Of a DNA stretch of 58,921 nucleotides, positions 5,995-58,149 are shown in pieces (position 1 is the first letter of the stretch; each line of letters starts with the position of its first letter). Where the stretch lies: the NCBI GenBank assembly GCA_910592345.1, contig CAJVPI010000083.1, forward strand, positions 1-58,921, read 5' to 3'. The notes under the pieces were generated by a model. That model saw only the letters and a program-made list of their open reading frames with translations, ran no database searches and was not told the origin of the DNA. Made by a program: the position numbers and the translations under genes. This DNA is from Paraglomus brasilianum (taxonomy: Eukaryota).

Positions 5995-8439
5995 ATGGCA
6001 GGCTCGTGGAATACTTTAGAACCTAAACTCAGTCCACAAATGTTCGTATCTCATAGTTTCCGTCATAACTCCCGGCCTCAAGTAATGTATTCAGTCTATG
6101 CTAACAGGCAACAGTTTGGATGTTCTAGACGTAATGGGGTTCGAATGCATGACTCCTGTTCAGGCTGGAGTAATTCCTTTATTTATGCAAAATAAAGATG
6201 TCGTTGTTGAGGTAAAAAATGATACATAAAATGCTCTAAATAAAACGATTAGCCTTACACATTCTGCTCATGGAATTTAGGCCGTTACCGGTTCCGGGAA
6301 GACTCTAGCGTTTGTTATTCCTATTATCGAAAAGTTGATGCGCCGTGAAACATCACAAAAACACTCAATTGGAGCTCTGATTATCTCTCCGACAAGGTTA
6401 TTTGATAACATTTGCTAGGAAGACTTGCACATCATGTTATATTCGGCTGACATTATTACATCAATACTAGAGAACTTGCACAACAAATATCATCTGTTAT
6501 TGATCTCTTCCTAAGAGATGGTGCCATCGTCCTAAAACATGCTTTATTTATCGGTGGCACGTCGGCTCTGCAAGATGACATTAAACGATATAAAGAGTTG
6601 CGACCAGACATTGTTGTCGGAACTCCCGGACGCTTGGAAGATCTTGTGGTTGGGCGCGGATCCTCAAGCGGGATAATTAACGCGAAAGAGATGGAAGTGT
6701 TGGTTTTAGATGAGGCCGATAGACTGTTGGACATGGGATTTACTCAATCCCTGAGTAATATTCTGGCTCATCTTCCAAAACAAAGGCGCACGGGTTTGTT
6801 TTCTGCCACAATGACTGATGCGTTGACGGAAATTGTGAGAGCTGGTTTAAGAAATCCTGTACATCTTCAGGCTAAAATAGAAAACAATTCCTCAAAAGAC
6901 GAACAACGGACGCCAATTACGTATGTATTTTCTTTTCTAAAGTCATATAGTGCGTTGATTTCCAATCATTAACCAATATGTTTCTCTCTTAAAAGGCTAT
7001 CCATTGGATACATCTTGTGCGAACCCCATCAAAAGCTATCCCAGTTGTTGCGATTATTGAAGAGGGAAACTGTGACAAAGTTTATAATATATTTTGCCAC
7101 ATGTGCATGCGTTGACTATTTCTTCAAGGTAACATACAAGAGTAATCATTGCAATGACATGCTAGTAAATTGATATTAAAATTTTCGATTTTCTACTCAG
7201 CTATTTAAAGGCTTGCCTCAGCTAAAAAATTTCAAGATAAATTCACTACATGGACAGATGAAGAGTAAAAAGCGGATTGGTAAACCCAATGTCATCACAT
7301 TTTGTCTTTCTACCTTTGTTGGTTCATTTTATTGACAAGATATTATCTTTTTCCTAGCCAACTACAACACATTTGTAAATCTTCCGCCTACCTCAAAGGC
7401 CATTTTATTATGTACAGACGTGGCTGCACGGGGACTGGATGTTCCTGATGTTGATTTTGTAATACAATACGATCCTCCACAAGACCCGAAAGTTTTCTCT
7501 CACCGTTGTGGCCGGACAGCAAGGGCAGGCAGAGGTGGAAAAGCGATAGTTTTTCTAACGACAGGAAGGGAAGAGGTATATGTAGGTAAGTACAAATCTG
7601 TTGGTATAATGTCGCAATATGTGATGCGTGAGGAAACAAATAAAAATTTCGTACATGCATCGGCAGAATTTTTGAAAATTCGCAAAATTCCTCTTCAGAG
7701 ACAACCATACTTGCTACCCGATGGTGCCGTATATAAATTGGATGAGGATTTGGATGATACAGTTCCCAAAGAAGATACAGACAACGAGAGACTAATTGAA
7801 CAAGTTAGGAAGATAATATTGTCCGATAGAGACTATCATGATAAGGTAAATGATAAACAGCGGTTTATTGAGATTCTCATATTTAATTGATACATTAACG
7901 GATTGGTTGCTTTCTCAATGATTTAAGGGCACAAGGGCTTTTGTCTCGTATGTGAGAGCGTACTCTAAGCATGAAGCAAATTATATATTTAGGATGAAGG
8001 ATCTTGATCTGGGAAAAATTGCCAAGGGTTTTGCATTGTTACAGGTATGTTTTGTGCTTTGGCGGTAGTCAGCAGTTACGGTCGTATGTTAATAATATTA
8101 GCTGTATTCTAACACCCATTCCAGTTGCCAAAGATGCCTGAACTGAAAGGGAGCAATATTGAGTTTGACAAAGTTCCAATAGAGGTAGGTTTATATATGT
8201 ATTTCCTCATTTAGCTTGAATTCGAACTGTCTTAATACTGATGACTATTATCACAGATGGCAGAATATAAATATGCAGACAAAAACCGAGAGACGGCACG
8301 AGTAAAGGAACTAGAAAATCCCCGAGGCAAGAGGAGAAAGTATGTGCTTGTGTAAACCCCCTTTTTTCTATCTCTTGACTATTGGTCGCTTACTAAGAAT
8401 ACTCTCTTTTCGCTACATATTAGAATATCACGATCATAG
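5995..8439 (+). CDS. SPB4: DEAD-box RNA helicase Spb4/DDX55 (60S biogenesis), multi-exon
   Basis: Q motif [93 protein letters not shown], and the Spb4-specific [44 protein letters not shown]. The 3' end is tentative. Confidence 0.92.
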
Positions 8440-9147
8440 CCTCAATAAAAGCGCGTGGGAAACGGTGGAACTACGCGACGGATCCGTCTTTAATTATTTA
8501 AACATTTTTCCCGGTCATAAAATTTGACCGTCAGAAATTGCAGAAATTTTTTAACCGACATTGCTCTGTCAATATATTGCATCACACTCGATTTTATCCT
8601 GCTGCCTCCAGCCAGTTCTGGTATTATTGACTAATAGACCATCCGTTAAGGTAGAACAACTCTAATTAGTTTTATTTCCGCGTACTTGTATCGAATCTGG
8701 CCACGGAGTAATACTATCTGCTACTGCCCACTCGTAATGATTCAGGCATTTTCTATTTTACTTTATTTCGTGCCTTTTAAACATACAACGCTATTCAGAA
8801 TCTAGTACTCTAGATCGGTCAATCGATTAATTGAATATTATATATTATAATTAATATACTTTGTTAAATCTGTGATTAAAACTCACTGTCAAACTTGATG
8901 GATCCGATTAAAGAATGATATTCGACAAATATTTTCATTTTTAAATCCTGAAAGAAACAGTCATAGTCAATAGACTAGCCCATTAATCTAAGTCTGTACC
9001 ACATTCACATTGTGCAAAAACGGATCACTTCGAAATTTTACGATCAACCTAATTTTGTTCGGCCCCACATCCTGTAAAAGAGACTATAGTCGCATAGAAG
9101 CACGACGTTAAGAGTCTAAACTCCTTAATCAAGACTAACCATTCAAA

Positions 9148-10010
9148 ATGAAATTAGTAAGGCAAGTAAGCATATCCCGAGTGTGAAAAAAAAAAAAAAA
9201 AAAAAAACCAAAATTTCCAGTTCTGCGGCGCGATCTCGTGTAGTTGCTTTGTCTATTCGTTGTTCTAATTGCTCATTGTATGCTGTAATGTGTACAGATT
9301 TTTAATGAAACTAAATAGTGAAACGGTAACCATAGAACTCAAAAATGGAACTATAGTCCACGGAACTGTTACAGGTTTGATAACCATTACTGATCAAATG
9401 AGACAGTCTTCTTTGGATGTTTAATAGTCGACAAATTTAACAATAGTTTCACACCATATAACATTCCGAACGATTGATTGTTTACATCAACAGTAATCTA
9501 ACCAATTTGTCTCTCTACAATGCGTCACTCTCTTTGTTTTCTCCTATTCTACCATCTTGCCCGGTAAATCAATCGCTATTAGGTGTAGACATGTCAATGA
9601 ACACACATCTTAAACTCGTAAAAATGACGGTGAAGAACAAAGATCCAGTCCACTTGGATTCACTCAGCATCCGTGGTAATAATATCAGATATTACATCTT
9701 ACCTGATTCACTCCCACTGGATACCTTGTTGATTGATGATACACCAAAAGCCAAGGCTAAAAAGAAAGAACGTAAGTGGGGAAGGAACGTGATGCAAGAT
9801 GTTTCGTATGATAGCAAACAAGATAGGATTATGAGTACGGTTGGGTGGCGGTTATTGGGAGTGGGCGATACTATGGAGGCATATATAGGCATCGGACAGG
9901 TCAGAATTTTCTCACCATTTGCATTTTTAATTTTTCAAGCTGCTGGTGTTGGTCGCGGACGAGGCAGAGGACGTGGACGTGGAGTTCGTGGACGTAGCAA
10001 GCCACGTTAA
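9148..10010 (+). CDS. SMD1: Small nuclear ribonucleoprotein Sm D1 (4 exons: 9148-9161, 9298-9374, 9583-9771, 9940-10010)
   Basis: Spliced product [83 protein letters not shown] followed by a GRGRGRGRG tail. Confidence 0.96.
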
Positions 10011-11226
10011 TCATCAGAGGTCTTTTAATAAAAAAGTTCATTAAGGGAAATGTGATGTCGACGTTCGGTCGCCTGGAAACGTTTGGTGTCCAAATTGGCC
10101 TGGGGATGATAGTTTTCAAATTTAGCTCCAAACATGTTCGTGTCAATTAAGGCGTAGCTGTATTTACAGGCTTGGTCCAGTAGTCGTGGGGTTTCCAAGT
10201 GATAGTCCTGCCGTTAGCAGCTTACAAAAGAAGATTATATGATATGATGTTAGAATTACGATCAATACAATCCGGATATCGAAAGACTATTTTATTTAGA
10301 AAAGTCGATAGCTTCGATTGGTCTGTTGAGAAGTCTTTATATTCACTCATTTGGCCCCTCGCGTGTGAGTTTCAATCGTAAAGCTAATAGACGTTTTATT
10401 TTACAATTAATGGGATAATAATTATTAATGGTCAACTACTGTAGACTGATCCACCTTGGGTGGTTCGTGTTGAGGGCTTGAATTTGATCCATGACCCATC
10501 ATCTTAATGCTTAATATTGAATCAATTCCAACAAACATGTTCAAGTCCACGACCTAGAGCAATGACAATTTGCAAGTTAAAAGATTGTGAGCCGAGTATT
10601 TTACATTTACACAGAATGGACTTTTCCTAATTACGTGCGAAGGTGACGTAACGACTTTGGTTCTCTGTGAGGCTGTGCTTACTAATTTCGGTTGGCCTAA
10701 TTTCTGTTATTCACTTACTGTGCAGCAATAGCTTGCAGACCAGTGAATCAGGACCTCTAGCAGAATCAAAAGAAGGATATATGAACATAGCGGTAACTCT
10801 ATGATTCCTTAAAACCCTCTGAAGAGATTAGAATGTCTGAGTATTGTGGGCACCAAATATTGGCCTTGTCTTGCGGACCTTTACCTCTAGCTAGCGTGTA
10901 TAGTAGTTGTCGCCAACAAAGAACATTACTGAGGTAATCAAATTCCCGCACTTATCGAACAGATCCGCAATTCAAGTTATCACGCGAATTTCAAAAGCTG
11001 GAGTTCTATTACAAAGTTCTTGGGACTGAGGAACAGGTTCATTAAAATGACAAATTAGTTGCAGTGGTATCGTGCATCCGACATCGGAAGTCCCACCTCA
11101 ATCTTGTATGCTAACGAGCTGTTAAATGTTTCTTACTTTTCAAAAATAAATAGACTAAAATTACATTTACTATTTCTAAGTATGTTTTCGATCCTTCATG
11201 ACTCCGTCATCCAGATTCGTCCACCT

Positions 11227-12473
11227 CTAATTGGTTTTAACCTTTTCCTTGCCGTTCTCATCAAATTCATCTACCTCTCGCGCTTGCTTCTCCCAGATCA
11301 TATTGTCTGTCTTTAATTTATACTGTTCGTCTCCTGGAAGTCTGTGAGTACCACCCACTCTATCCCATAACGTGAAATACTGTCCGTAGTTGTAATTAAA
11401 GTAGAGATGGTGTAAAGTATGATGAGCCGCCCCGTTTATTAACGGGTTCGCTGTTAAGTAGGCGCCTACGAATATACGGGGAATTTTGTACGTGAGAAAC
11501 AGCTTGATAATTAGGAATAATGGATTTCGGTAAGTAATAAGAAATTACCATCATGTATTAGGATAGTCCAAACGTTAACAAACACAAATAGTCCGAGATA
11601 CACATATTTCTGGAGAGGAAATAAAAACACAAAGAGATGATACGGAACAGATTGGAGGTATCCGTCAAGCGGGTGAAATGCATGGGATGAGAATGGGGTT
11701 GGGACTAATGTCGTCAATAAAAGAGAAGGGTTATGAATGGTTTGTCTGGGTTTTTTTCCGGAAATAATAGAACAGAGCAAGTAATTCATATATCATTTTT
11801 ACCGATCCATCTATGATGTGGCTGTTGGAATGAGACAAAACGACGACGTAATTAGTAACAGTGTGCATAATGACCTATTCAACTATCTCTTTTGACCACA
11901 GCCTAACTTCATCTCTTTTCAGCATTCTATTCTTCGCCCACACCTTTCACACCCGATTATGCTCACCTTGTGCAAATGCTTATAAATCAATGGATGATGC
12001 AACCATCGGTGAATCCAATAAATACAAAAGTCGGTAAAGAGCAAGAACATCGGCACGCTTGCTATCAAATACCACCACCCATACTTTTCCACGTCATCAT
12101 ATAACCTAGAATACCCTTTCACTTCTCCAATAAACCAGGGTATGGTGACTGCAGTAGTAATAGGAAATCCACCGACGGACAGGAACATCTCTTTACGTAT
12201 TTGGTTCTTGAGGAATTTCGGATGTTTCATCAAGTCATGGTTAAATACCAAGTAATACGAGACGCCAGATAGCGAAAAGTAGAAAGTTGTAATGAAGGCA
12301 ATGGTTATAATAAAGAGAGTAGTGTACTGACGATAAACGTTATCGCGTGAAAGAAAGGAAATTGTTGAAAGAGAGGGAAAATAGGGATGGGAGACATTAA
12401 CAAAGCGAGGAAATACGTGCGCGTATAGATCGTCAAAAAGGTATTCGTCTGCATATGTGAGAACTATGTCCAT
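11227..12473 (-). CDS. ERG3: C-5 sterol desaturase (4 exons)
   Basis: His boxes [15 protein letters not shown] (spanning a 19-nt exon at 11803-11821) and [41 protein letters not shown]-terminus [26 protein letters not shown]. Confidence 0.95.
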
Positions 12474-12936
12474 GGTTGCCGACTGACAAGAACGAGTATT
12501 ATACGTGTGGTCTTATTGTGTGTGAAAAAACCGTAACCACAAACAAGGTTGCGGAGGATAAAAAGAGTCGAAATTTCTTGAAAATGAAATTTTTTTTTAC
12601 GTAAGGGTAACGAGTTACCGGGGATTTCTCTCGATCCTAATATTATTTGTCATATGCGTCGTGTAGTACCACTAAATATTACAACCCTGAATAGAAATGA
12701 ATGTTAACGAACCCTAACTATATCGGTAAATAACGTCAGGTAACACATAGCGACCGCATGGTGTAGACATTGGGATACAACTGAGGTATAGTAATAGCAT
12801 TTCAATAGAAAATATTGGGTTTAATTTTATTGATAAATTCCATTAGTGACGTCTGTCGTTTGACCTTTCTACTGTTTCATCTAAGCGCTCAATTATATAT
12901 AATGTATAGCATAATTTAGATTCTAATTTATTATAT

Positions 12937-27382: not shown

Positions 27383-27790
27383 ACTGAATACATTGTAATA
27401 TTGTAATGTTACTATTAATGTGCTATTTTATTTGCAATAGTCTATATAGCATCTAATAGCTAGTTTAATTATATCAAGGATCAATTCACAACTCTCGCTT
27501 ATAAAGAATTGGAATTAAAGTTAATAAATCTGATCACGAATGTTTGGTTTCAAAAAATGAGCCCAGTTGTCTGTAATGATTGGTATTCTATGTAAGAACC
27601 AGAAAATTACATAAATAGAGAGCTTGCTTTGTCAAGTGCTTGGAAGAATTTAGATCTGAAGGATTTTTGTTCAAATGCGTAATATCTTCCAGCGAACCCT
27701 TCAAAGAAGTGACTCGAATCACGGGAATTCTTGAATATCAATGCAAGCTGATCGTTTTTCTGAGATACAAACCTTTACTATCGACCAAAT

Positions 27791-28623
27791 ATGTTGTTGA
27801 CCCCACCACATCACTTCGGGACTGTTGAGAAAGGAGTATACCGATCAGATATGCTTCGTCCCTCTCATTTTACCTTTATAAGGTCTCTCCGACTCAAGAC
27901 TGTTCTCGTACTGTCACCTGAAGTAACCACACGAGCTGTTACCAATTTTCTGGAAGAGAATAACATCCGACTGGTAGGTTTTGTCTGTAATTCATTTCCT
28001 GACAATTGTTACATCTTTATAAATGCATGCAGGTTATAGGTACATTTAGGCCTGAAGGTCTGGAAGCCCAATATAGGTTGGCGACCAGTGAGCGAAGAAC
28101 TGATTAAAGATGGATTAGAGCTAGTCTTGGATGTTGCAAATCATCCTATTCTCGTTATGTGCACGTAAGTGACTAGCTTATGATATTGTAGTATTTTAGA
28201 TACAACAATAATTAATATGATTTGTGGCGAAGGTCGGGCATCCATGAAACGGGAATGTTTGTTGGCTGTCTACGTAAATTACAGAATTGGAACTTCTGTT
28301 CGATTGTAGTCGAGGTAAAGTGGTAATATGGATATTCGCTTTAAGAATCATGCTCATGTGCTTATCCAACCAACACACGATTGTTGGATTGGAAGTATCG
28401 TAGTTATGCCGGCAACAAAGCGAGATACGTTAACGAGCAGTTTATAGAGCTCTTTGATATGGATCTGATAACGTTTCCTAAGAACTTGCCTTATTGGTTT
28501 ATTGAACAACGGAGATTATTGGTAAGCGTCACGCTCTGCTTTGGATCATATATGTCATACTGATTTCTTAAATTGATGAACTAGGAAGAGGAGGAAAAAG
28601 AGGAAGAATTAACGCAGCCGTAG
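27791..28623 (+). CDS. Siw14/Oca-family (PFA-DSP) phosphatase-like protein, OCA4-like, 5 exons
   Basis: MLLTPPHHFGTVEKGVYRSD..LRLKTVLVLSPE..WRPVSEELIKDGLELVLDVANHPILVMCTSGIHETGMFVGCLRKLQNWNFCSIVVEYRSYAGNKARYVNEQFIELFDMDL..LPYWF. Confidence 0.88.
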
Positions 28624-36149: not shown

Positions 36150-38624
36150 CTACTTTGGTGGTGTCGAATGAATTGCTCGAGCTGCTATCCCGTCAATTGT
36201 ATCTAAAAACTTCCTCCTCATGTCTCTAATAACCTCCGCCTTATTTGTATGCTCACTACCATTCTTCCCATCCGACTCTCGATTCAACATTATTATCACT
36301 ATTTCTGCAGCATTAAAAAATGTCCATAGTTCACCCACAGTGATGATTCGCTTCTTAGCCACAGAATTAGTTACTTTCAGCATTTGTTCTATAAATGTAA
36401 GACCTTTACTCGGCTTGAATACGTCAGAAAACACAGAAAAATAACACCTTGCCATAATCCGCAATGCAGCTTGAGCGGTCCATGGTTGACGCTCCTTTAT
36501 GGTTTGTAGATAATCTGAGCCAAGGTATTGTAATAAATAGGATTGTACTGCCGGGCGAAGAAAGTCTGCGATCGTTGGGAGAATGGTTTCCAAATAACTT
36601 AGCTGACCGATCGTTAGAGGAGTGGACGCGACATGTTCCGTAAGAAATGGTTGATTTGGGATGGGTTGTCCAGGAAAGGATAGCTGGACGTAAGACGAGC
36701 TCGAGGCTATCTGAGATACGTATGCACTAGACTGGGAAAACTGGGTGTGCATGGCATGGATGGAATCGGAAAGTGAGAGAAGACCGGTCGGAGATTGGCC
36801 CGTGATAAACTGGACGTTAGCTCGGCTGTTGGATTGAGTGTCTAACATATCTATATCTAAATTCACAGAAGCTGAAGACTTCCGTCGATTCTTTGGTGAA
36901 TGGATCGAGTCATATAGCGAGGAAGATTGAAGCTTTTTTGTGTCATGCATACTAGAATCTGCGGCCGATGGAGACGAATTGAGATGAATGTATACTGGTG
37001 ACGGCTGGTTATTAGGATAATTCGACAGGTATATGGGAACGGTTGCTGCAATCTCATTGGACGTTGTCTTATGTATATCGCCAACAATTATATTGTGAGA
37101 AGAGGAATCGGGACCTTGAAGTGTCAAGTAATTGTTGTTTTTCAATATGCCGTTATCGTTTTCATCATCACAATCCATCATTTCTGTATCTTCGTTGTAA
37201 GTATATGATAATATCTGTTCAATAATTTAAATTTTAGTGTCCTCTGATAATAATCACAGGTGAGTATGCAAATTCTCTCCTAGTGTCTACCTGATGCTTA
37301 GCGGTTATATCCAAGCTAGGTTTATGCAATGGCTTGTCGGTTGTACTAGTCTTTGCTAGATTGGTAGTTGACAGAATATGACCACCAGGAGGCATGTGAG
37401 TAGCTAGTATTTGAGCGATTAGTATGACAGTTAGAAGTGATAAAACTGCTTCCAATCAGACGATTTTTGGGTCGATAATTCTTCGGCCATATACTGACCA
37501 CTGAAAGTGTTTGCATTACGGTAGTCAATAACTGAACGATCGCCTGCTGGTTTACTTCCAATAATTCTGGTCAAGATGTTCTCCAATCCAAACTTCTTTT
37601 CAAAAGAGGCCGTCCCAATTCCTGCTCAAATGAGAAATACGTTAAATACTTTCTTTTCAGGCAGATTCCTGTCATCATTGCTTACCGTGAACCATCGCTT
37701 TAACACACAGATTTTTGTCGTTCGATAACAAAACGATATTTGAACTTGACACAGTCCGGAAATATCTGTGGCATAAAACATTAAAACGTGTCAATGATCA
37801 ATTTAATGCTAGAGTAAATTTAGCATGCGTTCACTTACCGGCAGCAGTCAAGAATTTTATCGTCGTTTAACTACATCCAAATCAGATACTATTGTTATAA
37901 CTGACTTAATCTAATAACTGACTAAATTTGGCCAGTCGCCCAATCTGCTAACTTACATTAGCTGCATCGATCGTTTCATCGAGCATCTGTCCTCTTAACG
38001 ATTCCTCTTTGTTCTCTAGACAACTATGCAAATACGTAATAGCGCTCTTTGCCAGGTTCTTTACATCTGGTGCTTGCTTTCCGTCTGAATTTTGAGCTGC
38101 ATACGTCTGTCGGTTACTAGGTGTGCTTTTCAATCCGTCCAGTTCCTGCAATACAACCCATGGAATAACCACGAGAATGTTGTATCTTTTGGCATGCAAG
38201 GTAATCAAAGTTCGAATAAACGCCAAATGACTTATGAGGAAATTAGTATCGACCACTACGATAAATTGGTGAGTCAAAGATGGAATTTTTGGGATCGTAG
38301 ATTGTCGAGTAGATCGTGGAAGCTGTGAGGATAATAATTGGTTATCTGAAATGTCTGTAGTCGACAAAGGCGACGTCGCTTGACTATGTTTTAATTCTAG
38401 CGGCTGGCTAAGAGAGAAGGGAAGAGCGCAGGAGGAAGAAAAGACGTAGAAGGTTTACTATTGACTAGCTAATTCAATCTCCAGAACGGGTTTCGTGGTA
38501 TAATACATACGGTCGTTTGCTGGCTATCGACAAGATCTCGTCGATACTCAACGATTTGAGCAGCTATGTCTAGTAGCTCATATTCATCATCTATGTCCAT
38601 ATACACAGTCTCCTCGTTGTCCAT
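36150..38624 (-). CDS. SWT1: SWT1-like PIN-domain endoribonuclease, multi-exon
   Basis: VVVDTNFLISHL, VVIPWVVLQELDGLK, LRGQMLDE, NDDKILDCCRYF and VLLSNDKNLCVKAMVH, followed by a long Ser-rich region and a helical C-terminal domain. Confidence 0.85.
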
Positions 38625-38749
38625 GATCGGCCTAATGTGTTTAGAAAGTTTTTCACCAAAAGTATGCTCGCGACATACCGCTGCGCTCGTTGCACCAAAC
38701 ACGAAATTATGATTGGGTCATGACAAAAATACATCTTATGAATTGACTA

Positions 38750-39775: not shown

Positions 39776-41212
39776 TGTTTCCTAAATCAGTTACCAAAGC
39801 TTTAAGTAATGATTTTCCATCATCAGCTCTATCTTTTAAGTGTTGCACATTACAGGCTGTGCATTAGGGTTGTGTTGACAAGCATAAATTGGCACACCAT
39901 TCTGTCAAGTAAAATGTTTTTCTATTTCTTTTGCAGCTATTCTTCCACAATTTGCGCAATAGCTGCACTTATGATCTTTAGTATCTGACAATACTTCACA
40001 TTGAGAACACAAAAAATGTTCTCGGTCCCACCGACTCATTCCATGAGTTTCAAAATTGCTATTATTTGTTGCTTTTAAAAATTTATAGTAAAAGTAAATT
40101 TGTAAAGAAAAAAATTATTGTTATTATCTTAAAATAATATAAGTCCATTCAACAATGGCTGCTGGAATTGTTTTCTTCATGTTTTTATTTCTTTCTTGGT
40201 TTATCATGAGTTGGGGTTAATGTTTGTTTATTGTTTTGTATTTTACGTTCTTGGTAAATTTCATAAGTAATTTTTAGGTATTCCTGGAGAGTTTGAGGAT
40301 CATTAATTTTAAAAACGTATTGAGCAATTTTTTCTCCCTGTTCTTTTTTTAAAATGCTTCTAATAGTGCTGTAATTCTTTGGTTCCATTGTGGATTTGAT
40401 GTAGATTAGTTTCATATTATATTTTTTATATAGAGGTAAGCCTATATGAATTAGATTACAGACTTATAATGCAACTAAAATTTATCATGAATTCAGACAT
40501 GCATGGGCCACAACTGTGCCACTAATACTAAATCAAAGCTAAAGTTAGTCACTCTAGCAAATTTTTTAGCCACACTAGCAATTTTTAACTCACATAGTCA
40601 AATGTTCACTTTGTCTGGTTTTGTTGCAGTCTGCCCCATATTGCCTAAATTATACATATAATATTACTGCAAAATAATAAAGAAATTATAAACTGAAACC
40701 TATACTAATACTATGCAAGGATTCAGTATAGTAATATGGTATCTACATCACTGGGCAGCCTTGCATCTTGAATGACACTGCTTTTGTCGACCCTGACTTC
40801 TGATATCAGTGTTTGACGATACAGCTACTGCTCCGAGTCCAATTCGCTCTATAACTCAAAAATTTCGTATTAACATTACAACTGTAAGCTCAAAAAAAAA
40901 AAGAAGAAAAAAAAAAAAAAAGACCTTTGCGCGCAGCGTTTTTAGCCAGTTTTGTACCTCTCGACTCGACACTGTCTTATGGAAAGTGTTTAACAGCTTG
41001 GTAGCTTTCCCTCTTGCATGCACCAGTATATTGCAACCCATGTTAATCGACTACAGTTTAGCCTTCATTGCAAACATCATCTCCTCTGTCTCCTCATTAT
41101 GTATTTCGAATTGGACACAAAGCGGAGAACGCGCAGAATATGCCATGTGAATTAGTACTGGAAATATACAGACTTTGAGCACGTTAAAAGCATCCCAACA
41201 ATGATATTCTGA

Positions 41213-41483
41213 TCAGAGGTCTTCAACCACGCACGCACAGGAACAGCAAACGCCGAACGAGTCCAGGCAAGTTGATTGAAGATGATATCATTCATTGCCT
41301 CTAACACTGGTCAGAGGTCTTCAACCACGCACGCACAGGAACAGCAAACGCCGAACGAGTCCAGGCAAGTTGATTGAAAGATGATATCATTCATTGCCTC
41401 TAGCACTGGTCAGAGGTCTTCAACCACGCACGCACAGGAGGAACAGCAAACGCCGAACGAGTCCAGGCAAGTTGATTGAAAGA
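41213..41483. repeat. Tandem repeat, 98-99-bp unit, ~2.7 near-identical copies
   Basis: Unit TCAGAGGTCTTCAACCACGCACGCACAGGAACAGCAAACGCCGAACGAGTCCAGGCAAGTTGATTGAA... starts at 41213, 41311 and 41410. Confidence 0.95.
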
Positions 41484-42237: not shown

Positions 42238-42965
42238 AGTAGTAGTATTGTACAGACGTTCTAAGTACATATAGTATGATAATGACGGTACTTGCAAACA
42301 AGCGATTGTTTTACTTATGCAAAATCTAAAAAAAGTTTACTATACTTATAACGAGGTTTCATAGTAAATTTACTGTAAATTTTCAAACGTTTACTCATTC
42401 CTGTCCTGAATTAGGAGGGGTCGGTTACTTATGGCCAGGACTGTATAGCGAGTTATCGTCATTACCAAGAATCCGTTTTATAGCGATAACATAATAGTTA
42501 CGAAAAAAATCGTTATACAAGACATTAGTGTTCTGTATTTCCTTTTTATTGAACAAACTACATTCTGATTGTTTCTTATTATTGACATGAGGTTTTACGT
42601 AAGGAGCGAACTGTTGATATCGTATTTGTACCGCAATTAAAGCCTGTGGGTGGATAAACGAGAAAATTAAACACATTATTCAAGCGTTCTATGGAAACAG
42701 TTTTTTCCTCGCTAACTCGAGTTTGTAGTCATTACCGAAACTGGATTATTAATACCGTGCCGGTGCTGGCAGCATTCATGCCAGCTGTTTTTAATTCATG
42801 TTCACTTTTGTACATATTAATATTAATGACGGTTTTTATTTTTACTTTTTAAATTTACCTACTACATGAACAGAGAAGTTACACGACGCTTTGGTCGGAC
42901 AAACTGTCACGATTAGGAAATTTCTGGCTGTAATAATAAACCATGGCTGGCTTCTTCCCGTTGAC

Positions 42966-45223
42966 ATGCCGAGTCGCAAATATACCACACTTCACGAACT
43001 CAGACGGTTAAAGACCGAACGCAACAAAAATCGTTCTCTGTACACGAAGTTACGTGATCCTGGCCAAACTTCTGCTCAGTCGAATAAGTCCTCTTCTGGT
43101 CAAAACTCGGCTTTGATTGCAAAATCCGATTCCAAAACGACAAATACTGTAAGACCAATCCCGTCGGTGCAAGATTTTATACTCCTTGTCTTAGAGTATT
43201 TTACAAGACCTTTTCGCACTGTGTTGCCGCTACCACTTGAATCTCGTGAAATATTAAAGAGGTAAAAAGGCGTATTGCGTGAGTTTGTATCTGTATATTA
43301 GATTATTAACACTGCTCCTTTTTGTAGGCTGACCAATCGACAAACCACTTTCCGAATACCATTTTCTGAAAAATCAATTAATAATCTTGAAGCTGCTTTA
43401 AAAACATTAGCTGAAACATGGGGACCGAATGTTTTCCAAGTAAAAGATGTGCTAGATGGTTCTCGCAGAAAGTTGCATTTGATCAGATTGGACATAGGCA
43501 AGTTGAAGAACGTGATAATACTTGAAAGGTTCGTTTGATCCTATTATTTTTTGGATGTTATTCCATGGAACATTGTAATTGTCAGAACAACTGGTTAATA
43601 TTTAATGAACAATATTCGATATTTAATAAAATAGAGCTTCTAATCTCGAAGACAACGCATCATTTGAAGCTGCTCTTAAATTAACCACAAATTACGTTCA
43701 CAATGGTCAGAAAAGAAAAAATGAGGAATCAGAAGTGGCAGATGAAAGTATGTTAGTCTAATACGTTAATTTATGTCAAAGTTGCGTTCAAGAAACCTGA
43801 TTGACAATTTATCCGTTCGCGTCACATGCGATAAACGTAGCTTTGAAAGAAATCGAGGAATTACTGTCAAAACCAAGCTATAAAGAAAGAGAAGACAAAA
43901 GCACTCTTCAAGAATTATGTGAAACGTTCAACAAAAAATCGGTTCATGATATTCTAATTAATGATACGGTATGCAGTAAGAATGTTATACAAGAATAGAT
44001 ACCATTTCATGTAATGATCGTGTTCTTGACTAACGTTTTATTAGTTTTCCTCTACAAATAATGTTTTTCGAGAATTTTGCGTATATGGAACGAAAACAGA
44101 TTGCCAAAAAGCCAGGAAGACTCCGCGAGCATGCCATAGAGTAAGCTTACCAACAATCTGCTAACTTGGTATACTTGTTTGATTATTTATCAAGTCTTTT
44201 TTGTCACTTTAACTGTCATCAGGTCCATTTTAGGCCGATGTTGAAACCACACACTGATCTAGACCTTGGCGACTGCTCGTATCTGAATACTTGTCATCGT
44301 ATGGATACATGCAAATATGTTCATTATGAGCTAGATGAAGATGAAGTCGAGTGGAAATATATTCAACGGAAACCAATTCCTCCTAGTGTTTTATATACAC
44401 CTCCTACAAAAGTTCTTCCACCGCAATGGATAAACTGTGACGTGAGGAAGTTTGATTTTTCAGTCCTGGGGAAATTCACCGTCATCATGGCCGATCCTCC
44501 ATGGGATATACACATGACAGTAAGTTGAATTTAGTCATAATAATCCGAAGCGAACATAATTCATGGCAATAATATTTTACTATATCTCTTACAGCTGCCA
44601 TATGGCACAATGACTGATGATGAAATGAAAGCAATGGCAATTTCTGATTTACAAGATGAAGGGTTGATATTTCTATGGGTTACTGGGCGTGCTATGGAAT
44701 TAGGACGCGAATGTCTTGCCATATGGGGTTACGACAGAGCTGACGAGTTAGTGTGGATAAAGACTAATCAACTACAAAGACTCATTCGTACCGGACGCAC
44801 AGGACATTGGTTGAATCATAGCAAAGAACATTGTCTTGTAGGCATCAAGGGAAACCCAGAGGGACTTAACCTTGGCATGGACTGTGACGTACTGGTAGGA
44901 GAAGTTCGTGAAACTAGTCGTAAGCCAGATGAAATATATGGACTTATTGATCGATTAGCACCCGGTACCCGTAAACTGGGTAATTACATTATATTTAATT
45001 ATAATTATTATTAGAAAGTTTGTCCTTTTAAGTTTGCGTGTTATTGAGTATTTTTTAATCTACAGAAATATTTGGACGTCAACACAACACGCGTCCTGGC
45101 TGGTTGACACTTGGTAATCAGTTGGATGACGTTCGACTATATGAGCCCGATGTAGTTGCACGCTACAACGCTCGTTATACGGATAAGCCTTGTAGTTTGA
45201 CAGAGTTACCACCAGATTGGTAG
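42966..45223 (+). CDS. METTL3: mRNA m6A methyltransferase catalytic subunit METTL3/Ime4 (MT-A70), multi-exon
   Basis: Two CCCH fingers ([41 protein letters not shown]), [118 protein letters not shown]. Confidence 0.96.
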
Positions 45224-45339
45224 ACAGAGGTGAGCTCTTTGTTCTGTCATAGTTACCTGCTTACCTCCGCTGCCACGGGAAAGTTACTGCTCGTAATGAG
45301 AACATAGAGCAACTCTTCTTTGTCACTCCCGTTCTGTAA

Positions 45340-46635
45340 TCACAATTCGTTTCCTATTGTCACCCAGTAATCTCTTAGGTTGTTTTTTCGGCCAAATATC
45401 TCGAGATACTTGCCTGGAGGAAAGGGCATATATCAAAGTCATGTAAATTTAGGCACTGTTTATGAATCTTTTGGTAAATAGACATGTAATTTATAAAGAC
45501 ATATACCGTTTGGGACCAGCCCTTCTATCATTTCATATAATTCTTCTGGTTTCTGGCTTTGTCCTCGCCTTTCCGAATAGATAACATCTGATAATATCGA
45601 ATGTTGACATCCTGGTGGATCTTCACCCTTTTTAATGGTTCAAGTCATTGAATAACAATCTCAAATATAGTAACTAATTTCGGCATCGCAAACATATACC
45701 TTTTTCCCAACTAAACACGTTTCCTTTGCGTGCTGGAGATAAAACCCATGACCTTTTGCCACTCTTCGATTAACAGTCTGTTTGACCCATGTGATATCAT
45801 CGACATATGTATAACCCCATTTACGCATCATCTCAAATGCTTTGGCATACTTATTATTAATAACCCATATGAAGACAAAGCCATTCTCTTGGAGTTTTTG
45901 TATTGGCATCTCCTCGATACACACGTCAGGAAGTTGTTGGTATGCAATAGCAACCTAAGAAGAAAGAAAACCTTGAATGGGGCCTTTTTATTTAAAGAAT
46001 GGTAACAACATAGAAAAAGAGTAATATATACACCACGAGTCGGAGCATGAGTGGCCAATTGCCATGGTGGATCCATAAGTATGACGTCAAATTGACATGC
46101 CTTTGCGAGTTCCTGCAAAGCGGTATTCATGTTATTCCACTTTTAATTTATACAAACACGAATAATTGAACCCAAGAAAGAACGCACTTACATCCCATTC
46201 AAATGTCAAGACATTTGCCTTAATCGGAATACACCACTCTGGTGCTTGAAAGGTTTCCCATGAACCTTCTAAAAGCGAAAAAAGATTCTATCATGCCAGC
46301 ATCAAAAAAATACATTTCTATAACCGTTCATAAACAGCCGACTTACTTTTGTTGTTATTTGGTTCTCCTGCCTGCCCACTTTTCTGCACACCTTCTTTTA
46401 CTTCGTCCTGTTCTTTTTGTTGTTGCTGCTTTCTGGTAATGGCCTCTAATTCTGCAATTTCTTCTAACAATTCGTCAATTCGGAGACGAAGCTCCGTTTC
46501 ACGTCGTAACAGTTTCTGAAGCTGACTGTCAAAAGGAGTTCTAAACGCAGTGGTGTCGTCGTTTTCTTCAAGGAAAGTATCATAATCGTCGTCAAGAAGA
46601 GGAGTGAGAGATGAATTTTGTTCAACCTTTGACAT
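45340..46635 (-). CDS. MTA1: DNA N6-adenine (ApT) methyltransferase catalytic subunit AMT1/MTA1 (MT-A70), 6 exons
   Basis: CIPIKANVLTFEWD, QFDVILMDPPWQLATHAPTRGVAIAYQQLPD, LQENGFVFIWVINNKY, WGYTYVDDITWVKQTVNRRVAKGHGFYLQHAKETCLVGKKG, ERRGQSQKPEELYEMIE, KYLEIFGRKNNLRDYWVTIGNEL*. The RGVAIAY and KGHGFYLQHAKE signatures match ciliate MTA1/AMT1. Confidence 0.93.
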
Positions 46636-46868: not shown

Positions 46869-47742
46869 ATGCATTTGACTCCAGAAGAAGTAGTATCAGA
46901 GTTTAAACGTAGAGGAGCATTTGATGAATTACGAAGAGAGTTGCTGGAAGAATTTCTGAAAAGTGTAATCAAAAGCAAAATTTCCGCGACCTTTAATTTC
47001 GAATAGATTATATGCTTTTCTATTCTCATATTATTAATTCGCTCTAGGAAAAAGGCAAAGAGTTTAACGAACGACTCAAGTCGTTGCTTGAATCAAGGAC
47101 TGACGGCGATCCGTCACTCTTAGACAAGGACCGAACAGAAATACATATTATATTACTTAACGACTTTGACAAGTATGTCTTCCTTTAAACATTTGTCGAG
47201 CGGGGGCGACTCGGTTACCCCAACTTAACTAGGTTTCGTGTATATAGGGCACGGGAAGATGAAAAAATAAAAGAATATATTTTGAAAGAAATAATAGAAT
47301 CAACGGAATACCAAGCAGCGCTTGTACAAAGACTCGGATCAATAGTTACAGAACTTTGTGCGTCAGAAGATGACGGTATGCTAAGAGATCTCTGTTATTA
47401 AGTTAAATTTCCGGGTATCTGATTACATCGTCAATTATAAAAGACACCATCAAAGGTAAAGAATCTGCTAGTATTTCCACTTCAGTCATCACAGATTCAA
47501 TCAAGCCTAGCCTAATGGAGGTAGAAGACATTAAAAAAGACAACGCAAACAGCGAACTTGATTTAGCAAAAGCCAGGGAATCTTCTGAAGATGAGCCAGA
47601 AGAGGGGGAAGCCACTGAGCAAGAAGATAACGAGGGAGGAATATCCAGTCCTAAGCGAAAATCCGACATAGACACTGTACTCGATTCTGCTCCTTTCAAA
47701 CGGAGAAAGTCCGAACGCTTGATAAAAAAGTCAGAACATTAG
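46869..47742 (+). CDS. BOD1/Shg1-domain protein (COMPASS/SET1-associated), multi-exon
   Basis: MHLTPEEVVSEFKRRGAFDELRRELLEEFLKS|EKGKEFNERLKSLLESRTDGDPSLLDKDRTEIH, then an acidic low-complexity tail ending in basic KRRKSERLIKK. Confidence 0.8.
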
Positions 47743-52746: not shown

Positions 52747-54141
52747 TTAAATATACCTCAATTGGTTAGAGGTAAACTGAGGAGGCGTCCATTGTAAACA
52801 ATTCTCATCGATTTTTCTCTTGTTCTTCCTTTTACTCCGCTCATACGCGGCTACTAGCCCCTCTGATAACAAAATAATCTGTTGCCCCTTGTATGGTTTA
52901 ACAGCACCTAATGTTTGTAATGTTTGTAATATATCTGATTGTGACACACTCGTTCTACTGGATATATCTTCAATAGTGATATCCTCATTTGCATCCTTAA
53001 CCTCAAGAAGCAGCTCAACGACAATCTCTGTCCAATAAGCTCGATAAGACAAAAGACCAAGATCAGATAGTGGTTTCTCAGGTGATCCTATTTTCCCTTC
53101 CTTCTTGGACAGTTCATAAGAAAATGATATTAATAATCTCCCATAACCTTGGCGTTGATATTGAGGCAATGTAAGAATACAGGCGAGATTATATCCTTCA
53201 CCGCTTTCTTTCTCTTTTGAGAAATATCCAATTATATGGCAACCCTTATTATCTCTCTTGCACATTATATAAAAAAGGAACGGATCAACGTCATAATACA
53301 AAGTCTTATGGTCAAGAAATAATTTAGACAATAGACATAGATTACGACAATAAGTTTTCTGCTTATGACCGTCGATCTCAAAGAAAGACAAATCACCCTG
53401 GCGATAGATTTCATTCCCTGGAGGATGTAGCACTGTACATTTTTGTAAATGTCTCTTCAATTGCTGCTCACTTATAAAATGGTATAAGCAAAACTCACAA
53501 ATATAAACAACCGAAGCATTAGCAAACTCGGCTGGAAACGGCGAAAAATACCACGTCTCGACATCGTACTTTCCAATATGTATCCTTTCCAGATTCTTCA
53601 CACGAGATATCTCAGAGAATGATTGCGTCATAGATCCAGAGTGACGTAGCTTTTCGATCTCTTGTTCTTTGGAGAATACAGCAGGAGTAGGCGTACCCGG
53701 TGATGCATCAACATCGGCGTCCTCAGACTGAGGCGTAAATGGATCGTCGAGGGAGGATATCTTACGCTTTTTAGAGACAGGAATTGGAGTACGATTGCCA
53801 TTATGATTTGGGGAAGAGGAATCGGTTTCTCTTAGACCACCTTTGGCTCGTTTTTTTGACGAAGGGCGTTCAATTTCTCTGGAGAAGTCTATTCTATTTA
53901 TAGATACCCACTCGTCGAGACGTTTATTGAATTCCATAAAATGGACATAGTATTCCGTGTGCCCATTGTTATTCCTGACAGACAATATTTCCGCTCTACG
54001 AGCCTCGTTATGATCTTTGGCATCTTTGTTCACATCTACATAGACTTTATACCCAACTGTGATATCATTCGGACTTGGAGAGCCTACGTACGATGGTGTC
54101 GATGGTCGAGATGAAGGGGAGTTGGAGAATTTCGTAGTCAT
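52747..54141 (-). CDS. ESA1: MYST histone acetyltransferase Esa1/Tip60 (NuA4 catalytic subunit), intronless
   Basis: Chromo-barrel AEILSVR..YYVHFMEFNKRLDEWV, EIEKLRHSGSMTQ, TWYFSPFP, C2HC finger ICEFCL..HLQKC, CRNLCLLSKLFLDHKTLYYDVDPFLFY, NLACILTLPQYQRQGYG, GSPEKPLSDLG. Likely ATG 54141 (MTTKFS). Confidence 0.96.
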   Translation of the reverse strand: MTTKFSNSPSSRPSTPSYVGSPSPNDITVGYKVYVDVNKDAKDHNEARRAEILSVRNNNGHTEYYVHFMEFNKRLDEWVSINRIDFSREIERPSSKKRAKGGLRETDSSSPNHNGNRTPIPVSKKRKISSLDDPFTPQSEDADVDASPGTPTPAVFSKEQEIEKLRHSGSMTQSFSEISRVKNLERIHIGKYDVETWYFSPFPAEFANASVVYICEFCLYHFISEQQLKRHLQKCTVLHPPGNEIYRQGDLSFFEIDGHKQKTYCRNLCLLSKLFLDHKTLYYDVDPFLFYIMCKRDNKGCHIIGYFSKEKESGEGYNLACILTLPQYQRQGYGRLLISFSYELSKKEGKIGSPEKPLSDLGLLSYRAYWTEIVVELLLEVKDANEDITIEDISSRTSVSQSDILQTLQTLGAVKPYKGQQIILLSEGLVAAYERSKRKNKRKIDENCLQWTPPQFTSNQLRYI

Positions 54142-54824
54142 ATAAGTGACAATATCTCTGTGGTGAAGTGCAGTGAACTTGGCTGCGGCGGATGAGGATA
54201 GGGAAGAAAGTATGTTTGTGATTGGTTGATAATAACTAAACGGGCACATTCACGTGAAGCATTTTGTGTATATTCGAGGAGGAATGAAAATCAATCAGTA
54301 TGTCTAGCACCAAATTACTATTAGTAGCGCCGTTTGATGATTACAAGAGTCTTTCGTAGATGTAGATATTACATCAACGTTTTAGTCTATATTTATAATT
54401 ACATATGGAATATGAAAAAGCACTTTCTCACAATTGTTTATGCTTACATTAACTTGGGTGGTGTCATTGTTGTTTTTGAAATCAGGCTAGTTTCATCAAC
54501 AATTTTTTATAGCATACATACATACTGTAAACCGCAATCAAATTGTGAGCAAGCTAAAAAGGTATGTAATAAAGGTAATAAACAACATCATAAAATCTAT
54601 TGTTATTGCAAGACATTCTCATTCTCATAGCCAAAGCAGTTATTCAAGAAAGCCAAGATTTTTGCGAATCATCATAACTACTTTTTATTCTTTATTTGTG
54701 TCAAGTACATTATAATTAAAAAAGCAAATTTCGAATTTCGTATCAAATGCAATCCACATTGTACGTGAAGCAAACCAAATCGTATTGTTCATTTGTAATA
54801 AGGATATCAGATTTGTTTGTCAAA

Positions 54825-56200
54825 CTAATTCTGCGAGTCTATACGCTGTTGTTCAAGCATCTCTTCTACAATGGCATAATCATATTCAGGGGGATTGTCT
54901 AGATATAAGTGATGTCCAGCACTACTTATGCGTTTTAATTTTGTAGGGACGCTCATTGTCTTCCTTGCTTCTTCTCCTGCACGATAGTCCATCCAATCAT
55001 GCATACCATCTACCAAACACAAATAGCGATACGTTGTTAAGAAACGAGACATCTTGAAATGCACACCTTCTCCCCATCGTAATGACGGGTTCAATACTTA
55101 CATATAAAAGCGGTCGGCATCTTCAAATTTTTCAATCTCCTAATTAACGGCTTCCTAGCATATGCCCCAGGCGACAGTATCCTATTCAAGGCATATTCCC
55201 CGCTTCCTGATGCACTCGATATCTGAAACAAATAATCGTATAAATCAATCCGATCCCGTTCTTCCAAATGGTTAAACCGCGTAGAGGTATACCATTCTAC
55301 AAGTGACGGACCGAACGGGCCAGACAAGCGCATCATCAACTGCGGTGTGATGTTCGCGTTCCACAAACGAACAATCCAGCTGGAAATCTTTTGACCACCT
55401 CGATATAAAGCTTCGCCGGTGGGACTTGGATTCTCTGGTATTCCGACTGGAGATACGAGAATTAAACGCTCTACCCGTTCGGGATACTTCAATGCGTACA
55501 CAGCTGCCAGATATCCGCCAAGTGAATGACCCAATAAAGTCATCTTCTTGATTTTGTGAATCTCGCGCCACTTCTCCAACGAATCAACGAAGAAACTCTC
55601 AGCTTCGTCGACTGCCTCGTCGACTGTTTTGGCATTTATATTAAATTTTGGTCTGGATGATCTGCCCATACCTAACCAGTCGATGGCATATATCTTCCAC
55701 CCAGGCACCTGAGACAGCGAATGATAATTACGATAGAAGAAACCAAGACCGGCTCCAAAACCATGACACATGACAAGACATTTTTGTGTGCTTGAGGGTG
55801 ATTGTATGTTTGTATGTTGATTCTGTACATCGACCTGTGTTTGTGGCTCGGCAGTAAATCCCAGTTGGGCATCGACCATTGGTTCTGACAGTGATGATGT
55901 CTGTAGTCCATCTCTTCCTATTATGAAATCATTACCCATCTGATCGATAGAAAGTGTGTTTATTTTTCTCTTTCCATCGCCATCGAGATCAACTAATCCT
56001 ACTCTGGCAATCGTCTTTGAATTTTCTGGATTACCAGTCGTTTTCTGGCCGTCGAGGGAAAAAAATGCGAGTCTTGATAACAGACGTGCTTCGGCTGCTT
56101 CGGACGTTTTTTCCGTTCGCTGGTACCAACGACGAAGCGAGGAAAAACGTTCGTTTAGTGGAAGTGCTGGTGGGATAGTTTCTAATGTTAACGAAGTCAT
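54825..56200 (-). CDS. Alpha/beta hydrolase, ABHD4/ABHD5-Cld1/Ict1 family (lipase/acyltransferase), 2 exons
   Basis: LVMCHGFGAGLGFFYRN, AIDWLGMGRSSRP, AESFFVDSLEKWR, nucleophile GHSLGG, SGSGEYAL..ILSPGAYARKPL, FIY|GMHDWMD, and HX4D motif AGHHLYLDNP. One intron at ~55011-55099. Confidence 0.92.
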
Positions 56201-58149
56201 AACAGCTCGAAATGTACGTGAAGAAGCAAAGGAAGTATCGGTGGCTAGGAAGCGCAGGTCCGGGAGGCGTTATTTTATTTATCCTTGTGGAATGTATTCA
56301 TTTTATACTTGCAGATCTGTGATTGTGTAATCACTACCTACATCCCGACACGTAGTATTCCTATTTATGGAGGAGTGGCTATCTGAGCGTCCAATGAAAA
56401 GATAATATTTGAGCCTGTACGACCTGGCAGGAGGATTATTTTCTAAGGCCTATCAGTTTCCAAATCAGGGTTCTTGCAACTCCCTGAGGGTGACGCGACT
56501 CGACATTATTTGCAAACTGAAGCCATTTTTGTGGAAAAAAAACGAAGCTAATATGTATATCTTTTTTGCCTTTACCTTGTTCACACAGAGCTCGATGAAG
56601 ACTAATATTTGATGCTTTTAAAGTATAATCCATTGGAAGTATCTTTTCTTTTTCTTGACTTTAATCATCCTGCATACAACTAATGTAACACGAGCGGAAA
56701 TTCCCATATACGCCCAATAATAATAATTGTTGATCAAGAAGTCGTAAAAATTCAACGGGCATTCCATTAGCTTAGAAACGCCCGAGATGTCAAAATCATA
56801 AACACTTTTTTTTTTACAATTGTCTGATTCGTCGTTTTGTTACCCGATCTGCCATATGTACGAGTGATAGGAACAAATTGTTATCTTTCATTATCGCATG
56901 ATCAGTTTTTTTCGTAATCAGCTCTATCAATCAGTATTCGAAAATCGGACAAGTGAACATACAATAATTATCCGTTATCAAGTCACATCTAAAAGTAACA
57001 GAAAATATTCTCTATATGGGTTGTGTGAATTGGTTTTCACTATTATTTCATATTTATAGTAGAGACTGTTATGAAGACTGTTAAATCATATGTTCCTCTC
57101 TAAATTTCTGCGCAGCTCCGATGGTGACACGAGGCCTCTAAGATCAGCGCTGCCAACTTTCACTTATTCTGTTACGAAGTTCCGGGATTTGACCCGCTCT
57201 GAGAACAGGGTTAAAAATCGTTTCAAGATCATGTAATTTATTGGTACAAGAGATCATTCTGATGTGAAAAGTGACAGCCGCACAAGCTATCATGAGATTC
57301 GCAGTGGGTACATTAGCAGTAGGGCATAGCAGTTGCAGTATAAGAAGCGACTTTCCGTTAGATTCCATCATATTCCTTAATGTTCCTTTAATGTTCAATC
57401 AATATTTTCTTATACTCTGAAATACGTTATTGATGATTTGTTCTCTGGTAATTATCGATATACAGTCAACTCTGTTTATAAGGGCCTTCTTTATACAGAC
57501 TGGTTAAAAATTTATAAATAAATTTCCAACAATAATTTCCATATGTGTGTGATTTCTTTACATGGACCATTCACTTGTCCTGATCCGCAGTAGGAATGGC
57601 GCGATATCAAAGGGTTTTTAATCCTATTTTTAATATCGATATGAGTTACTACGATCTTCTCTATATGAAATAAAAATCTTATAGATAACATTGACAAGTC
57701 CCGTCTTGAATACTTATTACAGGGGGTATGCTACTCCAACTTTGAGCTAAGGGAAGAAGTCAAGGTTTGTACGGTTTGATGTAAATAGTAAAGCCTATAA
57801 ATTGTCAGGTGATGGTTGCATCAGTTAGGGTTTACCATAAAAGCGGGCATTTAGATTATTAGGAATGTCATCATAGTAATAGTATTGTATTTTGAGTGAT
57901 AGAATTTAATTGGCTTATCAAACACACAAATCGATGCCGAGGATATTAATTATCACATTTCTGGGAGTAGCACCGTGGAAACTAAAACCCGGGAGTTTAA
58001 AAACCTCTTAGAAAGAAATATTGCTTACGGACAAAAAACCCAACAAGCCTTTCTATTCTGCATAGCAATGAATTGGCTATGTGTATTAACGATTGAATAA
58101 ATGGACATATTAAGATTGCAATACATAATAGCATACGTTCGCGGAAATC

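Follow-up and report, generated by a model that had tools for sequence, protein, structure and literature searches.

The analysed window comprises 58,921 bp of Paraglomus brasilianum DNA (contig CAJVPI010000083.1 of assembly GCA_910592345.1, forward strand). It is eukaryotic and intron-rich, with a GC content of 37.6%, and its ApT and CpG ratios showed nothing special. Two genes of the MT-A70 methyltransferase family lie tail-to-tail in this window: a METTL3/Ime4 orthologue on the plus strand (42966..45223) and an AMT1/MTA1 orthologue on the minus strand (45340..46635). Their stop codons end at 45223 and 45340, respectively, leaving a gap of 116 bp (45224..45339). Both reading frames, of 557 and 298 amino acids (aa), are intact and both carry the DPPW motif, as a preliminary description of the locus had stated. 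No further MT-A70 match was found among the window open reading frames (ORFs) scanned.

The METTL3 gene consists of eight exons (42966-43261, 43328-43528, 43635-43747, 43841-43968, 44045-44140, 44223-44519, 44595-44979 and 45066-45223, plus strand). All seven introns have GT..AG borders, and the 557-aa frame contains no internal stop. Spliced joints were present in RNA-type contigs for six of the seven introns, and intron 2 was placed by homology. The public model of this gene (3626_t, P0131; 539 aa) is mis-spliced at 44045-44140 and 44970-45065, and so lacks CCCH finger 1 as well as five residues close to the C-terminus; with RNA support, the model comes to 557 aa.

The protein carries two CCCH fingers in tandem, the first reading C-x7-C-x9-C-x3-H in the alignment and the second C-x5-C-x5-C-x3-H, followed by an MT-A70 domain (PF05063) with DPPW at residue 369 and the 11-residue METTL3-type loop motif at residue 442. 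Its PDB scores were 404 bits for full-length METTL3, compared with 98 bits for MTA1-type chains and 87 bits for METTL14. It is 65% identical to the Rhizophagus and Gigaspora orthologues, and in a tree of 34 rows it grouped with animal METTL3 with a support of 100/100. The METTL3 identity proposed earlier was thereby borne out, and the gene is predicted to encode the catalytic subunit of an mRNA N6-methyladenosine (m6A) writer.

The mRNA m6A mark is described as written by METTL3 together with METTL14 (PMC12695648), and METTL14 entries are present for Gigaspora margarita and Rhizophagus clarus (Table S1 of PMC10826363). A role of AMT1 as substitute partner of METTL3 was set aside, since Gigaspora and Rhizophagus both possess METTL14. 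The METTL3 model of Paraglomus occultum (P0122) has an aberrant 5' part.

The AMT1 gene has six exons (46635-46347, 46268-46192, 46112-46032, 45954-45700, 45627-45507 and 45413-45340, minus strand). All five introns are of the GT..AG type, and the 298-aa product is identical to the public model 3627_t (P0241). In this protein with an MT-A70 domain (PF05063), DPPW stands at residue 136, RGVAIAY at 148 and KGHGFYLQHAKE at 216. The highest PDB score, 252 bits, was obtained for chain 7f4l_C of MTA1c, compared with 119 bits for METTL3, 57 for METTL14, 31 for MTA9 and 23 for METTL4-like chains; AMT2/5 had no labelled chain among the PDB matches listed and were absent from the tree. Entry 7F4L belongs to the MTA1c structure paper, where Y258 and Y294-H297 are given as MTA9-binding residues (PMC9174199). 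These contact residues (Y258 and Y294-L295-Q296-H297) align to Y185 and Y221-L-Q-H224 in the Paraglomus protein.

The 34 tree rows were of METTL3-type and fungal AMT1-type only, and P0040, which lacks DPPW, was excluded. Within these two types, the phylogeny that had been suggested as a check placed the two window proteins in separate clades, each with a support of 100/100. Given this composition of the tree, the link of the minus-strand protein to the ciliate enzymes rests on the PDB scores. With both lines of evidence in agreement, the AMT1/MTA1 assignment was upheld, and the gene is predicted to encode the catalytic subunit of a writer of symmetric ApT N6-methyladenine (6mA) in DNA. The METTL3 and AMT1 proteins of the window are paralogues with 37% identity over 195 aa, so that they do not stem from a recent duplication.

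The two families are reported to have separated before eukaryotes' last common ancestor (LECA), the evolution of RNA and DNA MT-A70 enzymes is described as largely decoupled, and ApT 6mA is written by AMT1 with AMT6/7 and p1/p2 (PMC12695648). Symmetric 6mA is made by Mta1 in Mucor (PMC11258239), and Mta1 is essential in Rhizopus (PMC12019607). Every genome of arbuscular mycorrhizal (AM) fungi analysed is reported to have AMT1, and R. irregularis, where AMT1 is present, has low but symmetric ApT 6mA (PMC8298701); 6mA levels in Glomeromycota are low, at <0.3% (PMC11258239).

The junction between the two genes was also recovered in other DNA. Two soil-metagenome contigs cross it, L003 with 98.5% and L007 with 94.6% identity, and a contig of run X6 (45133-45342) and one contig of run X9 bridge the gap independently. 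The gap contains one substitution in L003 and eight in L007. The divergence of L007 amounts to 6.9% in the gap versus 5.6% in introns, so that the gap is no better conserved than the introns. Nine soil-metagenome loci were found with AMT1, and METTL3 occupies the same position at two of them (L003 and L007); it was not downstream at the other seven, where ample 3' flank was available only in L005 (864 nt) and L006 (474 nt). In L007 (1-1214), the junction copy shows a METTL3 frameshift, altered conserved residues and an end that folds back; it may represent either a duplicate in decay or a noisy contig.

For a genome of about 10,000 genes, the chance of adjacency was estimated at ~2e-4 for one named pair and at ~3e-3 for any of 15 MT-A70 pairs. 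Such adjacency is rare per genome, but coincidences of this kind are expected somewhere in a large scan.

Transcription across the junction was assessed from RNA-type contigs of 4 of the 23 listed runs, and the overlap described here rests on two contigs, one per run. The METTL3 3' untranslated region (UTR) contains an intron of 138 nt (45230..45367, plus strand, GT..AG), which starts 7 nt past the stop codon and has its acceptor inside the last coding exon of AMT1. In a contig of run X15 (237 nt, depth 3), position 45227 is joined to 45366 with one G between them, and the contig then covers 45366-45390. This joint corresponds to the removal of GTGAGC..CACCCAG from an allele with one extra G, and the extra-G allele is carried by X6, X9, L003 and L007. 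The second contig (run X9, record 20; 1,429 nt, depth 12.7) is spliced at METTL3 introns and runs unspliced from 45065 to 45512.

The plus-strand splice signals fix the strand of these contigs, so that the METTL3 3' UTR enters the AMT1 coding sequence in antisense orientation. The antisense part (45340..45512, plus strand) covers the last exon and the last intron of AMT1 and the tip of its exon 5. The overlap was thus found in a spliced form (X15) and an unspliced form (X9), in one contig each. The contigs show neither transcript ends nor levels or strand counts, and a contig over two genes is not by itself proof of a single transcript. Most of the AMT1 body was without cover in X9 and X15, which is not evidence of silence.

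In Saccharomyces cerevisiae, >20% of genes take part in overlaps of convergent 3' UTRs, often with reciprocal interference as a consequence (PMC3900390). In Paraglomus, the antisense overlap is probably a side effect of how short the gap is (116 bp). By analogy with the yeast convergent pairs, high expression of one gene could lower that of the other through the overlap.

The position of the pair in other fungi was determined from contig sizes, locus tags and accessions of the AMT1 and METTL3 orthologues together with rows of Table S1 of PMC10826363. The METTL3 orthologues were taken from the best 120 of 2,979 matches and from the clusters that were opened. Among the matches listed, both genes were placed in 23 species: they are adjacent in one, P. 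brasilianum, share a scaffold in two, lie apart in 17 and are uninformative in three.

The two same-scaffold cases are Geosiphon and Diversispora epigaea. In Geosiphon, G9A89_005591 and G9A89_005623 lie on one contig of 710,016 bp, 32 tags apart, and the accession order merely repeats this distance. In D. epigaea, Glove_22g118 and Glove_22g6 lie on scaffold 22 (843,147 bp) with non-consecutive numbers; Glove_22g118 was classed as AMT1 by the motifs in its Table S1 row and Glove_22g6 as METTL3 by BLAST.

Different contigs or far-apart tags were observed within Glomeromycota for R. irregularis (OCT59_027947 and OCT59_007251), R. clarus (RCL2_000975700 and RCL2_002643800), R. diaphanus, Glomus cerebriforme, Funneliformis caledonium, F. 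mosseae, Gigaspora margarita, G. rosea, Entrophospora candida and Entrophospora SA101, where the placement rests on the longest of seven AMT1 contigs. No METTL3-AMT1 linkage was seen in the seven species outside Glomeromycota with usable placement (Calcarisporiella, Endogone, Tieghemiomyces, Dimargaris xerosporica, Cladochytrium, Rhizophlyctis and Chytriomyces). The uninformative species are P. occultum, with the genes on contigs of 2,358 and 2,295 bp and an AMT1 model cut at its 3' end, and Dimargaris cristalligena and Rhizoclosmatium (R. globosum), whose JGI-style identifiers carry no position. Neither the best 120 of 2,979 matches nor the opened clusters included METTL3 of Ambispora, Mucorales or Mortierellaceae, which is not evidence of loss.

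When only assemblies able to show linkage at ~1 Mb were considered besides the window (n=5), the genes were linked in Geosiphon and D. epigaea but not in R. irregularis, R. clarus and Calcarisporiella. Of the four AM-fungal orders sampled, three have a member with both genes on one scaffold. For assemblies of 129 and 147 Mb (PMC9453076), the chance of two independent same-scaffold matches is ~3e-5, rising to 3e-4 when a threefold concentration of core genes is allowed for; the chance of at least two linked assemblies out of five is 4e-4 to 8e-3. As same-scaffold pairs are unlikely by chance, the genes were probably linked before the AM-fungal orders diverged. Under both placements considered for Paraglomus, the root of the group falls among the three linked lineages, which likewise points to linkage that was probably inherited and later broken in Rhizophagus.

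The preliminary description had regarded chance adjacency as unlikely, and with the scaffold shared in Geosiphon and D. epigaea the pair is indeed more than an accident of one genome. Its interpretation stood in part; a conserved tail-to-tail locus was not supported. The microsynteny survey that it had suggested added linkage in two further species of Glomeromycota, but the genes lie apart in 17 of the 23 placed species, and tail-to-tail adjacency was observed only in Paraglomus-like DNA (1 of 23 species and 2 of 9 metagenome loci).

The immediate neighbours of METTL3 vary by lineage, even within Glomeromycota. In Geosiphon, the METTL3 model forms a fusion with a dysbindin-like gene downstream on the same strand (atlas score 0.95; a lead only), the Entrophospora models are fused to a kinase or an MSC domain downstream, and a Dentiscutata model is fused to Sua5 upstream. 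These fused models are probably annotation merges of neighbouring genes.

On the other side of the pair, a Shg1/BOD1-like gene (PF05205, COMPASS-associated; public model 3628_t, 46869..47742, plus strand) lies head-to-head with AMT1, with 233 bp between the start codons, and is not part of the pair. The report that 6mA tracks H3K4me3 in Rhizopus (PMC12019607) gives such a COMPASS-associated neighbour its interest. A Shg1-like gene is present on the AMT1 contig of P. occultum (3087_t/3088_t) and not on that of Ambispora leptoticha. The search for Shg1-like proteins returned seven proteins, without an orthologue from Geosiphon, Diversispora or Rhizophagus. A MYST-family histone acetyltransferase gene (Tudor-knot, zf-MYST, MOZ/SAS) is located at 52747-54249 on the minus strand, ~6 kb from AMT1, which brings four chromatin or methylation genes inside ~11 kb of the window. 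On the Mortierellaceae-like metagenome contig L009 (2861-7253), two long membrane-protein ORFs precede AMT1, matching the merged MBOAT-AMT1 model P0066, and the AMT1 neighbours are different there.

Genes for partner proteins were found on other scaffolds. In D. epigaea, the KAR4-like, WTAP, VIRN and YTH genes among the Table S1 rows listed lie on scaffolds 674, 120, 429 and 77, and none lies on scaffold 22. In R. clarus, METTL14 (RCL2_000300200) and a YTH reader (RCL2_000292400) are ~78 tags apart, which indicates that loose proximity among m6A genes has some background rate. Neither of the two marks of a conserved functional cluster, adjacency in distant relatives and co-located pathway members, was observed for the METTL3-AMT1 pair.

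Elsewhere in the window, three near-identical 72-nt repeats lie ~100 nt apart at 41209-41480, and a short element at 42444-42527 occurs in many copies in soil runs. Transposon remnants are suggested by ORFs at 38.9-39.6 kb and 49.8-51.0 kb (weak SWIM match). Other window genes (37948-38717 on the minus strand, 2644-12512, 27764-28039 and 55091-56269) encode PIN-domain, MFS transporter, DEAD-box helicase, LSM, fatty-acid hydroxylase family, WD40, tyrosine-phosphatase family, ARM-repeat and alpha/beta hydrolase proteins.

Taken together, the pair probably consists of two ordinary writers of separate machines, which belonged to an old AM-fungal chromosomal block and are neighbours in the compact Paraglomus genome without selection on their pairing. 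METTL3 and AMT1 would likely have sat in one chromosomal block in the AM-fungal ancestor, and local inversions and transposon expansion may then have shuffled this block. The outcome would be adjacency in Paraglomus, distances from tens to ~100 gene numbers in Geosiphon and Diversispora, and loss of linkage in Rhizophagus. To judge from the known families, the METTL3 partner METTL14 and the AMT1 partners MTA9/AMT6-7 and p1 would be encoded elsewhere. Ancient genes cluster regionally in R. irregularis (10.1101/2022.10.19.511543). Since R. irregularis has symmetric ApT 6mA with the genes unlinked, linkage is not needed for the mark.

Several points weigh against this passive account. If the background retention of genes on the same scaffold among Paraglomus, Geosiphon and Diversispora is low, the retention of the pair is itself unusual, and the sole neighbour pair checked (AMT1-Shg1) is not together in Ambispora. 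The gene numbers of Geosiphon and Diversispora may not follow position, so that the genes could be closer than they appear. Among the 17 separate cases, 14 are too fragmented or too little known for linkage at ~1 Mb, and Ambispora, whose METTL3 was not among the matches listed, gives no placement.

Among the alternatives, selection could keep the linkage through a cis coupling of the two writers, in which the METTL3 3' UTR would serve as natural antisense transcript of AMT1 and the alternative intron would tune the overlap; this is unlikely, though it has several observations in its favour. The scaffold is shared in three of the four AM-fungal orders sampled, a plus-strand transcript, spliced in one run and unspliced in another, reaches the AMT1 coding sequence, and yeast convergent overlapping pairs are reciprocally regulated (PMC3900390). 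The UTR splice sites are also retained in L003 and L007, but these contigs are too close to the window for this to mean much. Antisense action moreover presupposes that the genes are neighbours, an arrangement observed only in Paraglomus-like DNA; no extra conservation was evident in the gap sequence, the partner genes are unlinked, and Rhizophagus has AMT1 and symmetric ApT 6mA with the pair unlinked (PMC8298701). A more far-reaching version would give the AM-fungal ancestor a tail-to-tail unit in which the METTL3 3' UTR served as an antisense switch on AMT1, tuned by the alternative intron and trading RNA against DNA adenine methylation; it would have been kept in Paraglomus, loosened in Geosiphon and Diversispora and lost in Rhizophagus. 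This version seems distinctly improbable.

Pure coincidence in each lineage, without inherited linkage, is very doubtful. It agrees with the presence of linkage in only two of the five Mb-scale assemblies besides that of the window, with the similar proximity of METTL14 and YTH in R. clarus (~78 tags) and with the clustering of core genes in AM-fungal genomes (10.1101/2022.10.19.511543), but it has to accommodate the calculated chances of 3e-5 to 3e-4 for two same-scaffold matches and of 4e-4 to 8e-3 for at least two of five assemblies. That the pair is a relic of the tandem duplication separating METTL3 from AMT1 before LECA is scarcely credible: the proteins are paralogues (37% identity over 195 aa) of families whose split is that old (PMC12695648), yet linkage was absent from the seven non-Glomeromycota species with usable placement, and neighbours turn over even within Glomeromycota. 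Misassembly, or a pseudogene at one of the two positions, is largely refuted and carries almost no probability. Repeat-like DNA lies upstream of METTL3, and a frameshift and altered conserved residues are present in the related contig L007, but both window frames are intact and L003, the X6 contig (45133-45342) and the X9 contig each bridge the gap.

Both enzyme families are already known, and both genes are in public annotations. The linkage over three AM-fungal orders and the antisense overlap in Paraglomus were not found in print. No mention of METTL3-AMT1 linkage was encountered in full-text literature searches (several on context), in the available portions of the cited papers, including those on MTA1c, or in a 2026 review (PMC13297926), with subscription journals and preprint and other supplements outside this scope; no synteny passage was found in the G. 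margarita 3D-genome preprint. A passive arrangement would mark an old chromosomal block in fungi whose synteny has received little study. A regulatory one would directly connect, in cis, the RNA and DNA adenine-methylation systems, which are described as evolving largely independently.

When compared with METTL3/Ime4 (PF05063) of the METTL3-METTL14 writer, the plus-strand protein shares the two CCCH fingers, DPPW and the 11-residue loop, and has no notable difference; what sets the gene apart is only where it lies in the genome and its overlap through the 3' UTR. The minus-strand protein shares DPPW, the MTA9-binding loop and the tyrosine with AMT1/MTA1 of MTA1c, as known from Tetrahymena, Mucor and Rhizopus, its activity here being predicted. 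The arrangement itself is an unreported instance of a convergent overlapping pair, within a probably inherited linkage looser than first proposed. With the cis sense-antisense convergent pairs of yeast it shares tail-to-tail genes, a short gap and a transcript overlapping the other gene. In contrast to those pairs, the Paraglomus overlap extends into coding sequence, involves an intron in the 3' UTR and links two nucleic-acid methyltransferases that are paralogues.

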